Shown: one piece after another, positions 3,083 to 12,361 of the stretch
Layout of the letters: each line of letters starts with the position of its first letter
How positions within the stretch are numbered: the first letter of the stretch is position 1
Virus record (IMG/VR): IMGVR_UViG_3300037458_000654
Location: 1-27,231 of that record
DNA from: a virus
Lineage: Duplodnaviria; Caudoviricetes
DNA: 27,231 bases
Strand: one strand, 5' to 3'
Notes under the pieces: model-generated
Databases searched by the model: none
Told to the model about the DNA's origin: nothing
Seen by the model: the letters and a program-made list of their open reading frames with translations, nothing else
Made by a program: the position numbers and the translations under genes

Positions 3083-3259
3083 ATGGAGATTGTCGATCTT
3101 GAAGAACGAGTAAGGTTCTTTGATAAGAGAAGGAATCAATATGGGATCTTGGTTACAAGGAAGTATCATAAAACAACCTTATGGATAATGCTTTACGATG
3201 ATTGGACTATCGAAGAGCTAACCCAGTCTGATTTAAAGACAATCACTAAGGTACAATGA
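3083..3259 (+). CDS. Small hypothetical protein (58 aa, MEIVDLEERVRFF...)
   Basis: AAGGA RBS; hand-translated. Confidence 0.6.
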   Translation: MEIVDLEERVRFFDKRRNQYGILVTRKYHKTTLWIMLYDDWTIEELTQSDLKTITKVQ

Positions 3260-3260
3260 A

Positions 3261-3359
3261 ATGATATGCACATCATGCGGTGAAGAACGAGACGATGTGG
3301 AACGTCGTTATTCATTTTGCGGCATGTCGCTTGGAGCGATGGGTTCGGCGACTGGTTGA
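3261..3359 (+). pseudogene. Probable truncated gene (MICTSCGEERDDVERRYSFCG...) running into an attC half-site
   Basis: CxxC start with only 32 codons; the 3' third is attC-arm sequence. Confidence 0.4.
3326..3349 (-). mobile_element. attC-like half site (one arm only)
   Basis: Minus strand reads GCCGAAC CCATC GCTCCAAG CGAC = R box, 5-nt spacer, L box. Confidence 0.65.
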
Positions 3360-3371
3360 ACGGAGGAAGAA

Positions 3372-3677
3372 ATGGCAAAGGCACTACCGAAAAAATGGTT
3401 TGCAGGATTTAAGGCCAGCATTTCACTGCGAAAAGTCGATAAGTGGGCTGAACACAGGAAGTCGTTCAGGCCGTATTTTGACACATGGGAAGAAGCGCAT
3501 TTGCACATGCTTTGCGCAGCCGAAAAGCGCCTTGATAAGGCCAAGCGCGAGGCAAAATCCGCAGAACGTCACTTGGAAAAAGTGCGCTCATTGAAGACGC
3601 CGAACGCAGAGTTGAGCGGCGGCGAAGCCGTACGATCGGACGACTTGTGGGAATCAATTGATTCTGTTAAACGTTAA
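3372..3677 (+). CDS. Cassette-borne hypothetical protein; C-terminus (PNAELSGGEAVRSDDL) encoded by the attC-like site
   Basis: GGAGG RBS; bracketed by the complementary boxes GTTCGGCG (3343-3350) and CGCCGAAC (3598-3605). Confidence 0.75.
   Translation: MAKALPKKWFAGFKASISLRKVDKWAEHRKSFRPYFDTWEEAHLHMLCAAEKRLDKAKREAKSAERHLEKVRSLKTPNAELSGGEAVRSDDLWESIDSVKR
3599..3651 (-). mobile_element. Degenerate attC-like site
   Basis: GCCGAAC GCAGA GTTGAGCGG CGGCGAAGCCG T aCGaTCGgAC GACTT GTggg; right arm mutated. Confidence 0.7.
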
Positions 3678-5967: not shown

Positions 5968-6030
5968 TAACTATTCACAAAGCGTATTCTTTCGAGAGTA
6001 CGCTTGATGAATGGTTAATCATGCCATTCA
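5968..6030 (+). promoter_or_regulatory. Structured intergenic RNA element, copy 3 (same architecture, different sequence)
   Basis: TAACTATTCA/TGAATGGTTA basal stem, AAGCGTATTCT-TTCG-AGAGTACGCTT upper stem, alternative TGAATGG/CCATTCA stem. Confidence 0.6.
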
Positions 6031-6081
6031 AAACAAAGTAACTAACTCGGAGCAAGTAAATGGCTAGTTTAAACAAAGCGA

Positions 6082-6417
6082 TTGGAACGTAGGGTTATGC
6101 GCATCGTTTCCGAAGCTGAGTTTTCCATGGCGATCCGGCTGCGGTTGATGGGCGTGAAGGCGCGGTCCGTAGTTGGGCCAGGCCGAAGTGGATCGATTGC
6201 CAGTGTGTATGCCTCGCACATTCTCGGAATTCCGTTTATACCATACGGCACCGAATGCCCTGAACATCTGCGCCCGCTGCTGATCGTGGATACGGCACGG
6301 AAGAGCGGCGCGACGTTGCGGAAGGCCGAACGCAGGTATGGCGGTGACTGCGTTGTGGTGCATGTGTTCAACGAGCCGCCAAGGCTGCGATTCTGGTACG
6401 AGCCAGAGGCGCATAAC
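6082..6417 (-). mobile_element. Solitary gene cassette with an attC half-site
   Basis: TGGAAC GTAGG GTTATGCGC at the left end and the exact complement GCGCATAAC (6409-6417) at the right end. Confidence 0.7.
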
Positions 6418-6429
6418 AAAGCAAAGTAA
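6097..6429 (+). CDS. Minimal phosphoribosyltransferase-like protein (cassette cargo)
   Basis: VVGPGRSGSIASVYASHILGIP and LLIVDTARKSGATL resemble the type I PRTase PPi and PRPP loops; the ATG lies inside the GTTATGC box (ORF track starts at TTG 6082). Confidence 0.65.
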   Translation: MRIVSEAEFSMAIRLRLMGVKARSVVGPGRSGSIASVYASHILGIPFIPYGTECPEHLRPLLIVDTARKSGATLRKAERRYGGDCVVVHVFNEPPRLRFWYEPEAHNKAK

Positions 6430-6448
6430 ACCTACTCGGAGCAAGTAA

Positions 6449-6859
6449 ATGGCTAGTTTAAACAAAGCGATGTTGATCGGCAATCTCGGCAAAGACCCGG
6501 AAACCAAAGTGATGGAAAGTGGAAAATCGGTTTGCAACTTTTCGGTTGCGACTTCGGAAACCTGGAAGGATAAGAACAGCGGCGAGAAGAAAGAGAAGTC
6601 TGAGTGGCATAACATCGTTGTCTTCGATAAGTTGGCCGATGTATGCGCCAACTATCTCAAGAAGGGATCGAAAGTCTATATCGAGGGCAAGATTCAGACC
6701 CGCAAATGGACGGATAAGAATGGGGTTGATCGCTACACGACAGAGATCGTGGCATCTGAAATGAAGATGCTATCGTCAAAGAAAGATGGCGAGCAACCGG
6801 CTAAGGCGGCTCCTGCTGCCGCACCTGCTGATGATTTTGACGACGACGTGCCGTTCTGA
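6449..6859 (+). CDS. ssb: Single-stranded DNA-binding protein
   Basis: [15 protein letters not shown]...EWHNIV...[19 protein letters not shown]...DFDDDVPF. Confidence 0.97.
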
Positions 6860-8649: not shown

Positions 8650-8931
8650 ATGGAAACACCCTACACCGCAACCGCGATCCGTATCCTGACGCCCGACGAG
8701 GCGGCGGATCGCTTTACCTTTGCCGAGGTCGCTCGGCTGGCATCTCGTTATCCATCGGTCGCGCCGGAGTTTATCGCTCGGTTGGTGGAGGCGTGCGCGC
8801 TTGCCAACTTCCCGCTCGATCTGGCGGTTCGACGTTATCTCGATAAGGATCGGTCGATATCGGTAACGCCTGAACTCCTGGAAGTCCATCGCGATTTATT
8901 AACGCGCGCTCATCGAGTCCCTCGTGCTTGA
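8650..8931 (+). CDS. Hypothetical protein
   Basis: 93 aa ORF; weak RBS. Confidence 0.65.
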   Translation: METPYTATAIRILTPDEAADRFTFAEVARLASRYPSVAPEFIARLVEACALANFPLDLAVRRYLDKDRSISVTPELLEVHRDLLTRAHRVPRA

Positions 8932-9311
8932 CGACCTCATCGAGTCCCTATGATTACTTTTGGAGTACCAAAATGGTTGACGAAGTTTATTCTGGTGGAT
9001 ATCTAATCGAATCAGATGTGTTTGTTCCTGTTGTAAAACAACTTGCGGGAAATGGATTTGTTTGTAACGAGAACTTAGCAGCTAAGTTATGGACAAGATA
9101 TTCAAAAGATCAGTACGCAACCTGGATTGCTATTGATGAAGAAAGTTTGATTAGATTCGTCGAGTGGATTGAATCTGATCTTGATCGTGATGCTGCATTA
9201 TCTTAGATGACCATACTCATTGAGTCCCTGTCGAGTCCTACAAACCCTATCGAGTCCTTAGAGGAAGGCGACCCTGTCGAGTCCCTAACCGATACCGAGA
9301 TCGACGAGTCC
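8909..9311 (+). repeat. Seven GAGTCC-core direct repeats
   Basis: Cores at 8915, 8942, 9222, 9233, 9252, 9279, 9306; longest unit CTCATCGAGTCCCT. Confidence 0.85.
8973..9206 (+). CDS. Hypothetical protein (AT-rich, between the repeats)
   Basis: GGAG RBS before ATG 8973 (ORF track 8928..9206). Confidence 0.65.
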   Translation: MVDEVYSGGYLIESDVFVPVVKQLAGNGFVCNENLAAKLWTRYSKDQYATWIAIDEESLIRFVEWIESDLDRDAALS

Positions 9312-9728
9312 ACCCTTCCCTATGCGCTGGAAGCCGAGATCGATCCGGTCGATGTAATGGTGCGCTTCATCCATCGACTTATCCAACGACCTTCCAAGAA
9401 GTTTCCCATCACCCCAGATCGAGACCGTCTGATCGTGACAGTCCTGCTCGCCATCATTTCTGACCCAAACCACTATCTAAACAGAATAGTTACCAATCCT
9501 TTGATGAAGGTCTATTTAGAGCGTGGTGGCAGAGTCTATCGGGCTGGTCCGATCGCCAGGAACATGCGGGAAGATGACCAGTTCGATCATACCGTTCAGT
9601 ACCTTTACGACTATGGGATACCGATTCCTGATATTGCCAGAGCCTTGTCGGTAGGAAGGCGAGCCGTCGCCAAGCGTATCAAGTACCGACGTGGAGAAGA
9701 TATTAAAACTTTCGAGAGCGATACTTGA
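9207..9728 (+). CDS. Putative DNA-binding protein with acidic repeat N-terminus and C-terminal HTH
   Basis: YLYDYGIPIPDIARALSVGRRAVAKRI is HTH-like. Confidence 0.6.
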   Translation: MTILIESLSSPTNPIESLEEGDPVESLTDTEIDESTLPYALEAEIDPVDVMVRFIHRLIQRPSKKFPITPDRDRLIVTVLLAIISDPNHYLNRIVTNPLMKVYLERGGRVYRAGPIARNMREDDQFDHTVQYLYDYGIPIPDIARALSVGRRAVAKRIKYRRGEDIKTFESDT

Positions 9729-9753
9729 CTGCTTTCTATTAGCATGGTATTAT
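9725..9753 (+). promoter_or_regulatory. sigma70-type promoter for the H-NS-like gene
   Basis: TTGACT-17 bp-TATTAT with a TG extension. Confidence 0.75.
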
Positions 9754-9799: not shown

Positions 9800-10135
9800 A
9801 TGTCTTTCAACGAAATTATCGAAGGTAAGAATTCCGACGAGTTGGATGCTCTGATCAAGGCTGCGGAAGCGGCCAAACAGTCAGCCAAGGATCGCGATCT
9901 CGAAGAGTTCAACGAACTGGTGGAGAAGGTGAAGGCGCGTGGCGAGTCGCTCGGCCTGAACGTTCGCAGCTACTTTGTCGAGAAGAAGGTGATTTCAGAC
10001 AAGTACGTCAATCCAGGAAATCCCGATCAGAAGTGGAACGGGCGCGGTCCTACCCCGGAGTGGATGAAAACTCTGTTTGGCGATCTTCCCAAGGAGCAGT
10101 GGAAGGAAGCCAAGAAGGCTTATCTGATTCAGTAA
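9800..10135 (+). CDS. hns: H-NS family nucleoid-associated protein
   Basis: Coiled N-terminus, A..LGL linker and KYVNPGNPDQKWNGRGPTPEWM DNA-binding domain motif. Confidence 0.85.
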   Translation: MSFNEIIEGKNSDELDALIKAAEAAKQSAKDRDLEEFNELVEKVKARGESLGLNVRSYFVEKKVISDKYVNPGNPDQKWNGRGPTPEWMKTLFGDLPKEQWKEAKKAYLIQ

Positions 10136-10143
10136 GCATCAAT

Positions 10144-10201
10144 CTCCGTAGGTATATATACCTACGGAGTGCAAACAAAAAGTGTTGAGGTATATATACC
10201 T
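10144..10201. promoter_or_regulatory. 26-bp perfect palindrome plus a second copy of its 14-bp core
   Basis: CTCCGTAGGTATATATACCTACGGAG (10144-10169); AGGTATATATACCT again at 10188-10201, covering the next RBS. Confidence 0.7.
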
Positions 10202-10330
10202 ATGACAGATATGCTTGAAGAGTTGCCTATGACAGATATAATACATAATCTCTGCGAAAGGATCAGAAAACTGCAATCTTACATAGCGGCTTTGGTACGT
10301 CAATGGACTAAAGAGATAGATGAGCGATAG
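10202..10330 (+). CDS. Small hypothetical protein (42 aa, MTDMLEELPMTDII...)
   Basis: GAGG RBS; hand-translated; overlaps the next ORF. Confidence 0.5.
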   Translation: MTDMLEELPMTDIIHNLCERIRKLQSYIAALVRQWTKEIDER

Positions 10331-10508
10331 CAACGATTTTCCGAGAGTTATCTCAGGTTGCAAAGCCATTCATGGCTGTAGTGAAAAGAATAAGTGTGAA
10401 CGATACCATCAATATTTAAGATCGAAGCCAGGATTTGGATTTAACGCCAATCATACCTGTATTATTCCACTAAAACATTTTATCAAATGCAACTCATCAT
10501 CGAATTAA
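10320..10508 (+). CDS. Small Cys-rich hypothetical protein
   Basis: 62 aa ORF overlapping both neighbours. Confidence 0.55.
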   Translation: MSDSNDFPRVISGCKAIHGCSEKNKCERYHQYLRSKPGFGFNANHTCIIPLKHFIKCNSSSN

Positions 10509-10831
10509 ACGAATCTGATCTCGTCCCGATTGCCGAGAACGCGATCAAATACTTGTTAAGAAACGATCAGTACGGAGGAACTGGAGAAGCTGCGGAGTAT
10601 ATCAAGAATCAGACGAGATACGCGTTGATGGAGCATCTTAGAAATATTGATCTTTATGGAAAGGTTCAAGGTATAGCAACAACCTGCTTTAACGATATTG
10701 TTGAAGATGTGGTCAGACAAGAAATCATTGGAATTATCAAAAAAACTGTCAAAGAACTGAAAGATAAAGGAATGGTAACAGAGGCGCATAACGACCAAGG
10801 TGAGGCACAGCCTCCAACAAAAAAGCTATGA
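10487..10831 (+). CDS. Hypothetical protein whose C-terminus (HNDQGEAQPPTKKL) is encoded by attC-like site 1
   Basis: 114 aa ORF; stop codon lies inside the attC loop. Confidence 0.65.
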   Translation: MQLIIELNESDLVPIAENAIKYLLRNDQYGGTGEAAEYIKNQTRYALMEHLRNIDLYGKVQGIATTCFNDIVEDVVRQEIIGIIKKTVKELKDKGMVTEAHNDQGEAQPPTKKL

Positions 10832-10883
10832 ATACACCTAAAGACTCAACGGGAGGCTGTTGTCCTCCACCGCCTTGTTCGGC
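10786..10883 (-). mobile_element. attC-like site 1 (98 bp)
   Basis: GCATAAC GACCAA GGTGAGG CACAGCCTCC ..loop.. GGAGGCTGT TGT CCTCCACC GCCTT GTTCGGC. Confidence 0.82.
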
Positions 10884-11070
10884 TTCTTCTATTCGCGAGA
10901 AGTCGGAAACCGAGCGATGGTTCTTCATCGCAGACTGGTGCAAGAAAAAGGGCATCTCTCCAATGAATGCTGACAACTTCAATCGTGCCGCGATGGAGTG
11001 GGCGAAGCTGAATTGCTTTGAGCCGAACGCAAAGCTAAGCGGGACACAACAGCGCGAGGACAAACCATGA
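10828..11070 (+). CDS. Cassette hypothetical protein, starting in the loop of site 1 and ending in the loop of site 2
   Basis: ATGA overlaps at both ends; body bounded by GTTCGGCT/AGCCGAAC. Confidence 0.7.
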   Translation: MNTPKDSTGGCCPPPPCSASSIREKSETERWFFIADWCKKKGISPMNADNFNRAAMEWAKLNCFEPNAKLSGTQQREDKP

Positions 11071-11139
11071 CTGAAGACACAACTACCGACCCCAACAACA
11101 GGCCCGCTGTTGTGGCTCCGCTTGAGCGACAAGTTAGGC
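11022..11139 (-). mobile_element. attC-like site 2 (118 bp)
   Basis: GCCGAAC GCAAA GCTAAGCGG GA CACAACAGCG ..loop.. CGCTGTTGTG GCT CCGCTTGAGC GACAA GTTAGGC. Confidence 0.85.
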
Positions 11140-11402
11140 GCTACCCGCTGGACGTTGAAGGCGGGCAGACGGACGAAGGCGCCTACTGCATGAGTAAGGG
11201 GCACCACGACAAGGCGGCGTTTCTTGAGGAAGCGCGCATTTGGTGGGGCGATGAGATGGAGAACTGGACCGAGCCGGAACACAAGTGGCTGCGCGTGGTG
11301 CCCGACCCCAGCGAAGAGTGGCGGCGCGGATTGCTGATGGACGCCAAACCGCACTCGCGTGGGGCGTTCCCGGCGACGTGGACAGAGCGCCGTAGCGCCT
11401 AA
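11067..11402 (+). CDS. Cassette hypothetical protein with RBS and ATG inside the loop of site 2
   Basis: GAGGA at 11056-11060, ATG 11067; stop is the TAA of GCCTAAC; body bounded by the 12-bp complement GTTAGGCGCTAC/GTAGCGCCTAAC. Confidence 0.78.
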   Translation: MTEDTTTDPNNRPAVVAPLERQVRRYPLDVEGGQTDEGAYCMSKGHHDKAAFLEEARIWWGDEMENWTEPEHKWLRVVPDPSEEWRRGLLMDAKPHSRGAFPATWTERRSA

Positions 11403-11444
11403 CGCTCGGATGAGCGGCTTGTCCGCTCCATCCGATGGTTAGGA
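11397..11444 (-). mobile_element. attC-like site 3 (48 bp, very short)
   Basis: GCCTAAC GCTCG GATGAGCGG CTTGT CCGCTCCATC CGATG GTTAGGA. Confidence 0.8.
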
Positions 11445-11484
11445 TTAATGCGGATGGTAGTCTGCTTCATAGAAAAATATTCTA

Positions 11485-11724
11485 ATGAAAGCACGTTGTG
11501 GTTGCAACATGCTCACTATTGTACATAACTTAATGACTATTCCAAGTATAAAGTTTGTCTGCCCGAAATGCGGCAAAACCGAGTTGAGTATTTCAACTAG
11601 ACCGCTATACTGTCATTGCGAGGGTAGAGGAGCAACACGCACTAATTGGGATTTGTCAGGACCAGTAAAAAAAGTGCGGAAGCGCAAGTTTACCACTAAA
11701 ACTAGGATGATAAAGGATAAATAG
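11485..11724 (+). CDS. Basic Cys-rich (Zn-finger-like) protein
   Basis: CGC...CPKCG...CHC; 79 aa. Confidence 0.55.
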   Translation: MKARCGCNMLTIVHNLMTIPSIKFVCPKCGKTELSISTRPLYCHCEGRGATRTNWDLSGPVKKVRKRKFTTKTRMIKDK

Positions 11725-11738
11725 AGGGTGTTATTTTT

Positions 11739-11960
11739 ATGAGCAAGCGTTGGTCTGAGAGTAAAAAAGATTTAGTTATAAATAAAGAAATCGATCTCTT
11801 CTTAAAGGAGATTGTTACTATTTTTCAAAAGTATAACTTATCAATCGGTCATGAAGATCGAAATGGTGACTTTTTGATAGAAAAATATTCTATCGAAAAC
11901 TCGTTATGGTTACAAGATGCTCATGATAATACTGATAAACAATCTCGTGATGAGACATAA
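11739..11960 (+). CDS. Hypothetical protein, last gene of the + arm
   Basis: 73 aa; GAGG upstream. Confidence 0.65.
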   Translation: MSKRWSESKKDLVINKEIDLFLKEIVTIFQKYNLSIGHEDRNGDFLIEKYSIENSLWLQDAHDNTDKQSRDET

Positions 11961-11962
11961 GA

Positions 11963-12115
11963 TTACTTCTTCTTAGACTTCTTACGCTTTTTCTTTGCCT
12001 TTCTCGCTACGCTTAGAGCAATTGCTATTGATTGCTTTTGCGATTTTCCGCTTTTCATCTCTCTCTTGATATTCTTACTAATACTTTTCGCGCTAAAACC
12101 TTTGATAAGCGGCAT
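11963..12115 (-). CDS. Small highly basic phage protein (50 aa)
   Basis: Hand translation MPLIKGFSAKSISKNIKREMKSGKSQKQSIAIALSVARKAKKKRKKSKKK; GAGGAG RBS; resembles a recurrent phage family. Confidence 0.75.
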   Translation of the reverse strand: MPLIKGFSAKSISKNIKREMKSGKSQKQSIAIALSVARKAKKKRKKSKKK

Positions 12116-12127
12116 ATCGAGTTCTCC

Positions 12128-12361
12128 TCATACGACATAGATAGTCGGTTCGCTCGTTTTACGTCCTACGATCTGCCCGTTCGCAAGGATCACTTCATCA
12201 CCTGGACGATACTGGGTGGCATCGGTACCTGTCTTGCGTAACCGTTGCGATCCAATCACCGTGGCAATCGTTATCGAGTCCCCAGAAGTAGCGATAACCT
12301 TGCCGCTTGAAACAGGACGATCTTGAAGTAACTGCTTGAGTTGTTTTAAAGGGTGCATCAC
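12128..12361 (-). CDS. Small putative tail-tip (OB-fold-like) protein
   Basis: GKVIATSGDSITIAT...YRPGDEVILANGQIVG; ATGA coupling. Confidence 0.65.
   Translation of the reverse strand: MMHPLKQLKQLLQDRPVSSGKVIATSGDSITIATVIGSQRLRKTGTDATQYRPGDEVILANGQIVGRKTSEPTIYVV

Follow-up and report, generated by a model that had tools for sequence, protein, structure and literature searches.

The window analysed here is a whole virus contig of 27,231 bases, corresponding to a record that is about 36% complete. Its plus strand carries early genes for Sak, a helicase, SSB, an ExoVIII-like nuclease and an H-NS-like protein, and the tail genes of the contig are located on the minus strand. In the early region, a resident phage gene (10487-10770, plus strand) is followed by a stub of 21 nt (10771-10791, plus strand) that extends to the AA|C crossover of the first of three imperfect palindromes. 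These hairpins are situated at 10786-10883 (site 1), 11022-11139 (site 2) and 11397-11444 (site 3), where an earlier note on this DNA had correctly placed three sites resembling integron attC sites. Two small plus-strand genes without assigned function accompany them: gene 2 (10828-11070) codes for 80 aa, and gene 3 (11067-11402) codes for 111 aa, exhibits a GC content of 63% and belongs to phrog_10472. Site 3 has no cargo of its own and is bordered by a frameshifted phage gene remnant (11445-11528, plus strand).

The two genes had been described as intervening between the sites, a wording that does not hold, as both start inside hairpin loops (ATG at 10828 in site 1 and at 11067 in site 2). 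Consequently, both arms of these two hairpins are translated: site 1 supplies the first 17 residues of gene 2 and site 2 its last 14. Each loop ATG overlaps the upstream stop codon as ATGA, and in site 2 a GAGG motif is found in the loop together with the start of gene 3. As the loop thus holds a ribosome site and an overlapping start codon, each unit would carry its own translation start into the phage early operon. Among viral sites of at least 70 nt, an in-frame loop ATG was present on the plus side in 41 of 66 and on the minus side in 7 of 66, compared to 33 and 11, respectively, of 214 bacterial sites.

The body of gene 2 has 13 homologs whose N- and C-termini are different, and one viral locus (L062) carries a site 1-type hairpin and gene 2 together, while a viral scan by alignment yielded no confirmed relatives of this gene. 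Pfam gave no match for gene 2 or gene 3, the Atlas no usable match for a cargo function and the solved folds none above Z 4.4. For the predicted structure of gene 3 (mean pLDDT 78), the only matches are to small phage proteins (80-105 aa) that are themselves uncharacterised, and distant gene 3 homologs occur at viral loci in which our own detector finds no site. On these two grounds, the cargo resembles ordinary early genes of phages.

Anatomy of the hairpins

All three hairpins are imperfect palindromes with R and L boxes, an AAC/GTT core and unpaired spacers of 5-6 nt, and they carry extrahelical bases on one arm, the first and last of which are six pairs apart. As the earlier note had claimed, an extra base is located on the right arm of each site. 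Site 1 has an extra C and two extra T in this arm, site 2 an extra G and an extra T six pairs apart, and in site 3 a C is extrahelical and the T is part of the loop; the first extrahelical base, usually a G, is therefore a C at sites 1 and 3. Folded as single-stranded plus DNA and compared to shuffled sequences, the sites reached z values of -2.1, -4.5 and -5.0, respectively. For site 2, the fold of minimum energy has a paired stem and L box and an unpaired outer box. Three sites of the same polarity within 1 kb were found by our own detector in none of 60 shuffles. The detector also flagged a hairpin at 5969-6016, which was rejected as an attC site as it shows neither attC spacing nor a model match, and the purine skew of the sites gave a mixed signal and was discarded as evidence.

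A two-arm pattern search in bacterial loci yielded 141 matches. A covariance model, R1, was built with a structure specified by hand from 43 of 65 extracted bacterial-array attC sites, picked by length and non-redundancy. Four of the five bacterial genomes tested that carry the attC family of the source arrays encode an IntI above cut-off, and one source-array IntI is apparently located on the same contig as an array of 13 matches. The earlier note had proposed a covariance-model check on both strands with IntegronFinder; run with R1, our own model based on bacterial attC sites only, this check recovered exactly the three sites, all on the minus strand, with 26.6 (site 1), 50.9 (site 2) and 34.6 bits (site 3). 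The next best match in the 27-kb window scored 11.7 bits. Since all matches lie on the minus strand, this is the top strand of the sites, and the strand that IntI would be predicted to bind is the plus strand, which is the coding strand.

Sequence variation is in agreement with a conserved fold. In an alignment of 18 phage sites, which includes site 1 and stands without sites 2 and 3, compensatory changes were found in 15 of 20 consensus pairs, the AAC/GTT pairs show no variation, and the bulges occur on the right arm. Copies of site 1 with 88-94% identity exist in seven other viral contigs with different flanks, and its 22-nt core is present at 16 viral loci. A copy of site 2 (92% identical) is situated between other genes in a further locus (L001), and the arms of this site resemble those of bacterial arrays, the best agreeing at 34 of 40 arm positions. 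With 98, 118 and 48 nt, the sites include one, site 3, that falls below the range of 57-141 bp given for attC sites in the available text of PMC5027507, though a phage site of 50 nt was found to be active (PMC9892861, part of which was available). A close relative of site 3 is a solo site in L209/L210. In L210 (1993-2032), this site-3-like hairpin is cargo-less, with the end of a gene on one side and a strong promoter-like sequence on the other.

Inside the three sites, no plus-strand promoter and no terminator match was found, and Rfam gave no meaningful match over 10000-12200. The array had no blastn match among 50,697 GenBank phage records, and for site 1, a search of 301 genomes from the phylum of G006 gave just three matches of 20-22 nt and none that was close.

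At least two attC sites thus occur within a few kb, as identified with our own model. The absence of an integrase from the window, claimed by the earlier note, was confirmed: no tyrosine recombinase match (PF00589) was detected in the 27-kb contig, and no intI lies beside the array in this incomplete record. The feature is real, namely a CALIN with reversed cargo, which is cassette-like and yet no canonical cassette array; any activity in this phage would be hypothetical.

Polarity of the array and the mobile unit

In a canonical cassette, the gene is located on the top strand and is followed by its attC site. Here, the genes lie on the bottom strand and the site precedes the gene, so that the polarity proposed in the earlier note (sites canonical on the minus strand, cargo on the plus strand) stands. 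The mutually complementary boxes at the gene ends, from which independently excisable cassettes had been deduced, are present as well, with 8 and 12 bp. They carry no polarity information, since they occur in viral and in canonical bacterial arrays alike (on average 4.8 and 6.1 bases beyond the triplet, respectively), and they were rejected as a test of polarity.

The proposal that the mobile unit is an attC site followed by a gene gained support from the sharing of flanks and from solo units in relatives. Among 98 distinct viral and metagenome sites, five pairs share a flank, which is the downstream flank in all five and the upstream flank in none. Four of these pairs are clear, with the likeness beginning at AA|C, and one of them consists of site 1 with gene 2 of the window and its counterpart in L062. 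In L062, the left flank matches the site that lies upstream at that locus. Examination of ten loci revealed three solo units (L016, L025 and L027), each composed of a hairpin, a gene and an orphan AA|C box. Among the 12 distinct settings in which the site-1 core occurs, two (L013 and L016) have a left edge that reads AT|C, which fits GWT, the secondary target of IntI described in the available text of 10.1101/2022.09.11.507474.

The coding strand in the gaps between sites was called with a codon model, for which all 27 calls made on 30 pieces of long window genes were correct and which was wrong on the window's own gene-3 gap. At the strict threshold, 20 of 62 viral gaps were reversed, one was canonical and 41 were unclear, versus 4 reversed, 53 canonical and 84 unclear of 141 bacterial gaps, counts in which the gaps of one genome are non-independent and the viral set was partly retrieved with hairpin-coded peptides. 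For a viral set obtained with the same pattern as the bacterial one (30 gaps), nine reversed gaps stood against no canonical one at the strict threshold and 12 against 12 at the loose one. A reversed array was also observed in a Burkholderiales genome with two IntI genes (L118:3493-5456), possibly within a prophage.

It is highly improbable that these are ordinary bacterial cassettes on the minus strand, with the plus-strand ORFs as shadow frames. The codon model did prefer the minus strand for the gene-3 gap by 3.8, a minus-strand ORF of 201 codons spans the region and canonical arrays exist in viral records (L038, TJE1). Against this, the plus-strand proteins belong to conserved families with invariant residues and a PHROG match, the confidently predicted fold is common to phage proteins, and the genes run in the direction shared by all early genes, with coupling through ATGA.

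Hairpin exchange, integrases and the arrival of the block

Hairpins and gene bodies occur in many combinations. One hairpin-coded N-terminus heads at least 10 unrelated proteins. Of 20 aligned gene-3 homologs, 15 have a complete N-terminus, and these carry 15 different hairpin-type N-termini. In 41 of 55 gene-3 pairs with bodies at least 90% identical, the 12 residues preceding the body agree at no more than 60%. At the protein level, the point of change coincides with the right GTT box codons. Judged from these sequences, the right G|TT box, too, appears to be a place at which hairpins and gene bodies are exchanged against each other. In addition, two loci (L014 and L017) exhibit chimeric hairpins with mismatched arms, which show that a further type of exchange takes place, within the loop and not mediated by IntI.

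A series of steps may account for these arrangements. The plus strand would fold into the hairpin, IntI would cut at AA|C in the left box, and the hairpin and the downstream gene would leave and insert as one. A rarer exchange at the right G|TT box or in the loop would provide a gene with a new hairpin and a new N-terminus. Recombination of the attC top strand takes place at far lower frequency (PMC5027507, in the text available); a rare event of this kind, followed by normal re-insertion, could place a new hairpin on an old gene body.

Alternatively, the attC-derived hairpins might by now serve mainly as linkers for homology-based swapping (Sak/exonuclease) and for translation coupling, similar to PeSLs, so that IntI would be dispensable. 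The window encodes both Sak and an ExoVIII-like nuclease, and the chimeric hairpins and the 15 different N-termini of the gene-3 homologs would be expected from such swapping. There is also a precedent for shuffling in the PeSLs of T4-type phages, units of promoter and terminator that are exchanged between similar copies and mark shuffling points (Arbiol et al., 2010; PMC2839356, in the part available). Like the hairpins described here, these stem-loops lie between small accessory phage genes, but the window sites have attC anatomy and contain neither a sigma-70 promoter nor a terminator motif. Moreover, adjacent sites in the window are too unlike for homologous exchange. The invariant AAC/GTT, the one-sided bulges and the covariation point to site-specific recombination, as do the AT|C insertion edges, the solo units with orphan boxes and the adjacent IntI genes, which makes the linker role quite unlikely.

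IntI genes of this kind were found elsewhere. When the 48 viral records behind the loci were searched with the IntI model, seven matched and two passed the cut-off. One of the two that passed (G436) is a canonical integron. Nine of ten near-complete viral records had no match, so that most such phages would need a borrowed enzyme. In the phage contig G423, a co-directional intI (278 bits, above cut-off) is located about 300 nt downstream of a site-1-family hairpin, and by our own reading an attI-like double box precedes its start. The hairpin directly upstream of this gene (L221; G423:C1:26123-27430) is a chimeric site-1-family hairpin, to which R1 gave no score. In G318, a divergent IntI-like gene (180 bits) abuts nine reversed attC sites, and the cargo genes point toward the integrase. 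The best PDB match of this protein is VchIntIA, with the insertion region and catalytic residues aligned. The Atlas clusters closest to it have viral shares of 88% and 68%, which is a lead only. The geometry of intI and attC in G318 is the usual one; only the genes are inverted. This array (L216:4053-11315) has an attI-like end, a DNA methyltransferase-like gene is among its cargo, and the integrase is followed by replication-type genes.

As IntI-type genes abut such hairpins in two phage contigs, an IntI-type enzyme is the likely mover of these units. The part of the earlier proposal that named a tyrosine recombinase as the mover is therefore retained, and the part in which this phage itself gains or shuffles the cassettes through IntI is unsupported, as the block is missing as a whole from relatives and its left edge lies off AA|C. 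Contigs from three of four runs join position 10770 to 11518 with intervening letters; these contigs were placed at 85% likeness, and the short sides of the joints comprise 30, 30 and 121 letters. Removal of a single cassette was seen in none of the 15 joints shown of 19. Other run contigs depart from the window at the edges of site 3. The expectation that breakpoints in related phages would fall at AA|C thus holds for the left edge of the hairpin-gene unit in relatives and fails for the edges of the block, the left one being located 21 nt upstream of the crossover.

The edges also indicate what was replaced. The resident gene has five homologs, one of them 92% identical, which end in KDKGELLT or similar. 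The window departs after KDKG at 10770, where the relatives diverge and the native C-terminus was replaced on arrival of the block. The 21-nt stub probably derives from the 3' end of a previous cassette: over its final 14 nt, the C among them, it is identical to the terminal part of a relic cassette gene (6404-6417). On the right, the frameshifted remnant is a paralog of the 3' half of the ORF at 11739-11960 (80% identical, repeat D2), and this likeness extends into the outer box of site 3. The GC content of the block is 56%, versus 39% and 35% in its flanks, the former value also being that of the resident gene. From the left edge 21 nt off the crossover, the lack of a single-cassette joint among those shown, the GC contrast and the remnant on the right flank, we infer that the block was imported whole by non-IntI recombination.

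Active shuffling of the array in this phage, by an IntI of the host or of an unseen phage and with the three sites inserted singly, would be compatible with the intact state of sites 1 and 2, with a contig just 36% complete, with the IntI genes of the bacterial genomes that share the attC family and with the recombination of phage attC sites by IntI1 (PMC9892861, in the text available). It is unlikely in view of the left edge, which lies 21 nt outside the box and cuts the resident gene short, and of site 3, for which cargo with a matching end box is absent and no attI-like box was seen downstream. The absence of single-cassette variants among the joints shown weighs little, since contigs drop rare variants. 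In a search by eye, no box complementary to site 3 was found downstream of the array. A CATAAC at 11524, likewise assessed by eye and against the attI layout, is without the second box found before intI in G318 and G423. As neither intI nor attI was found here, further shuffling would need an enzyme of the host or of a co-infecting phage.

Taken together, we favor, with a probability of roughly 0.8, a locus of three attC-type hairpins and two small genes in reversed layout, likely built and moved as cassettes by an IntI-type integrase in other phages and probably carried here as one block by ordinary recombination.

Relation to known integrons and to relics in the window

Clusters of attC sites in phages are known already. 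Qi et al. (2023; PMC9892861, of which part was available) reported 17 phage CALINs and showed that IntI1 recombined five of six tested phage attC sites, including the 50-nt site of TJE1. As in the window, these phages contain at least two attC sites and no intI, and the TJE1 site is near site 3 in size. TJE1 differs in being canonical, whereas in the window the genes occupy the bottom strand and have their starts in the loop. Among the published CALINs, MW202573 proved to be reversed with respect to its annotated genes (L215:2069-3738; the first 30 kb of 34.6 kb were scanned). The main text of PMC9892861, as available, contains neither "opposite" nor "revers-" and no mention of this reversal. 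A further phage site in our set (L031, about 397-448, reverse orientation) is near-identical to the aadA7 attC in the available supplement of the same study. For the reversed layout, which is the new element, we found no describing paper in the literature covered, which takes in few subscription journals.

Compared to the attC sites of class 1 and sedentary chromosomal integrons (Nivina et al., 2016; PMC5027507, in the text available), the sites share the arrangement of R box, spacer, L box and stem, the AAC crossover triplet, extrahelical bases on one arm with the first and last six pairs apart, and complementary cassette ends. Bacterial attC sites and the window sites also have sequence families in common. 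Unlike in bacterial cassettes, the gene is inverted, the unit runs from site to gene and the site codes for protein on both arms. Bacterial integrons further differ by their intI and attI, which were not found in the window; in G318 and G423, the genes point toward intI. Insertion of cassettes by IntI at GWT outside integrons was described by Loot et al. (10.1101/2022.09.11.507474, in the text available). The solo units with AT|C edges among the site-1 relatives resemble such SALINs and attG insertions, while the edges of the window block are unlike GWT insertion.

These comparisons lead to a tentative proposal, which we regard as possible without calling it probable: phages may run their own mirror-image integron, in which virus-enriched IntI lineages move hairpin-first cassettes of ordinary early genes, the attC loop acts as a start codon that travels with the unit, and top-strand recombination now and then joins hairpins to new gene bodies. 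Integrons are viewed as bacterial gene-capture devices of fixed polarity, and the phage cases as the result of infrequent capture. With a reversed form adapted to phages, these viruses would have a site-specific means of trading accessory genes, and one class of variable N-termini in their small proteins would be accounted for. Re-pairing by top-strand recombination would represent a visible route of new cassette birth, and cassette genesis would become testable, since one gene body is observed next to many attC sites that differ from each other. On its own, the window is a minor and probably passive case. It is of particular value for the empty alleles and two decayed relics, which show the entry of cassettes into a phage and their erosion.

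The first relic (3297-3651, minus strand) is a decayed second unit of two eroded attC-like sites around a plus-strand gene at 3372-3677, with weak R1 matches of 8.6 and 11.7 bits and complementary ends GTTCGGCG and CGCCGAAC. It is absent in relatives (3253-3648 missing, joint 3252-3649), the right break falling in a degenerate outer box, and a viral scan gave no confirmed relatives of its gene. The other (6082-6429, plus strand) is a cassette-type gene that has lost its hairpin, bounded by GTTATGCGC (6094) and GCGCATAAC (6409). It lies inside a 43-nt direct repeat that duplicates the start of ssb (6040-6471) and is absent in relatives. This gene has 147 relatives, with a Pfam match in none of seven tested, and one homolog (P0155) continues into a hairpin-type arm. 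Both relics are GC-rich.

The best-matching runs for the contig are wetland metagenomes, which may themselves be its source samples, and small shares of the stretch are present in five RNA runs. The best matches of the SSB and the H-NS-like protein are proteobacterial, with 64% and 37% identity, respectively. P0216 had only matches of 35-36% in 401 genomes of the phylum of G006 and in GenBank phages. An ORF at 8928-9206 is flanked by short repeated ATCGAGTCC motifs (8912-9287) and is missing in relatives (joint 8947-9244). The H-NS-like protein is encoded upstream of the array (9800-10135), and a sigma-70-type promoter match precedes its gene (9725-9753). Just past this gene, a perfect palindrome (10144-10169) and a repeated AGGTATATATACCT motif (10144-10202) form an operator- or terminator-like element.
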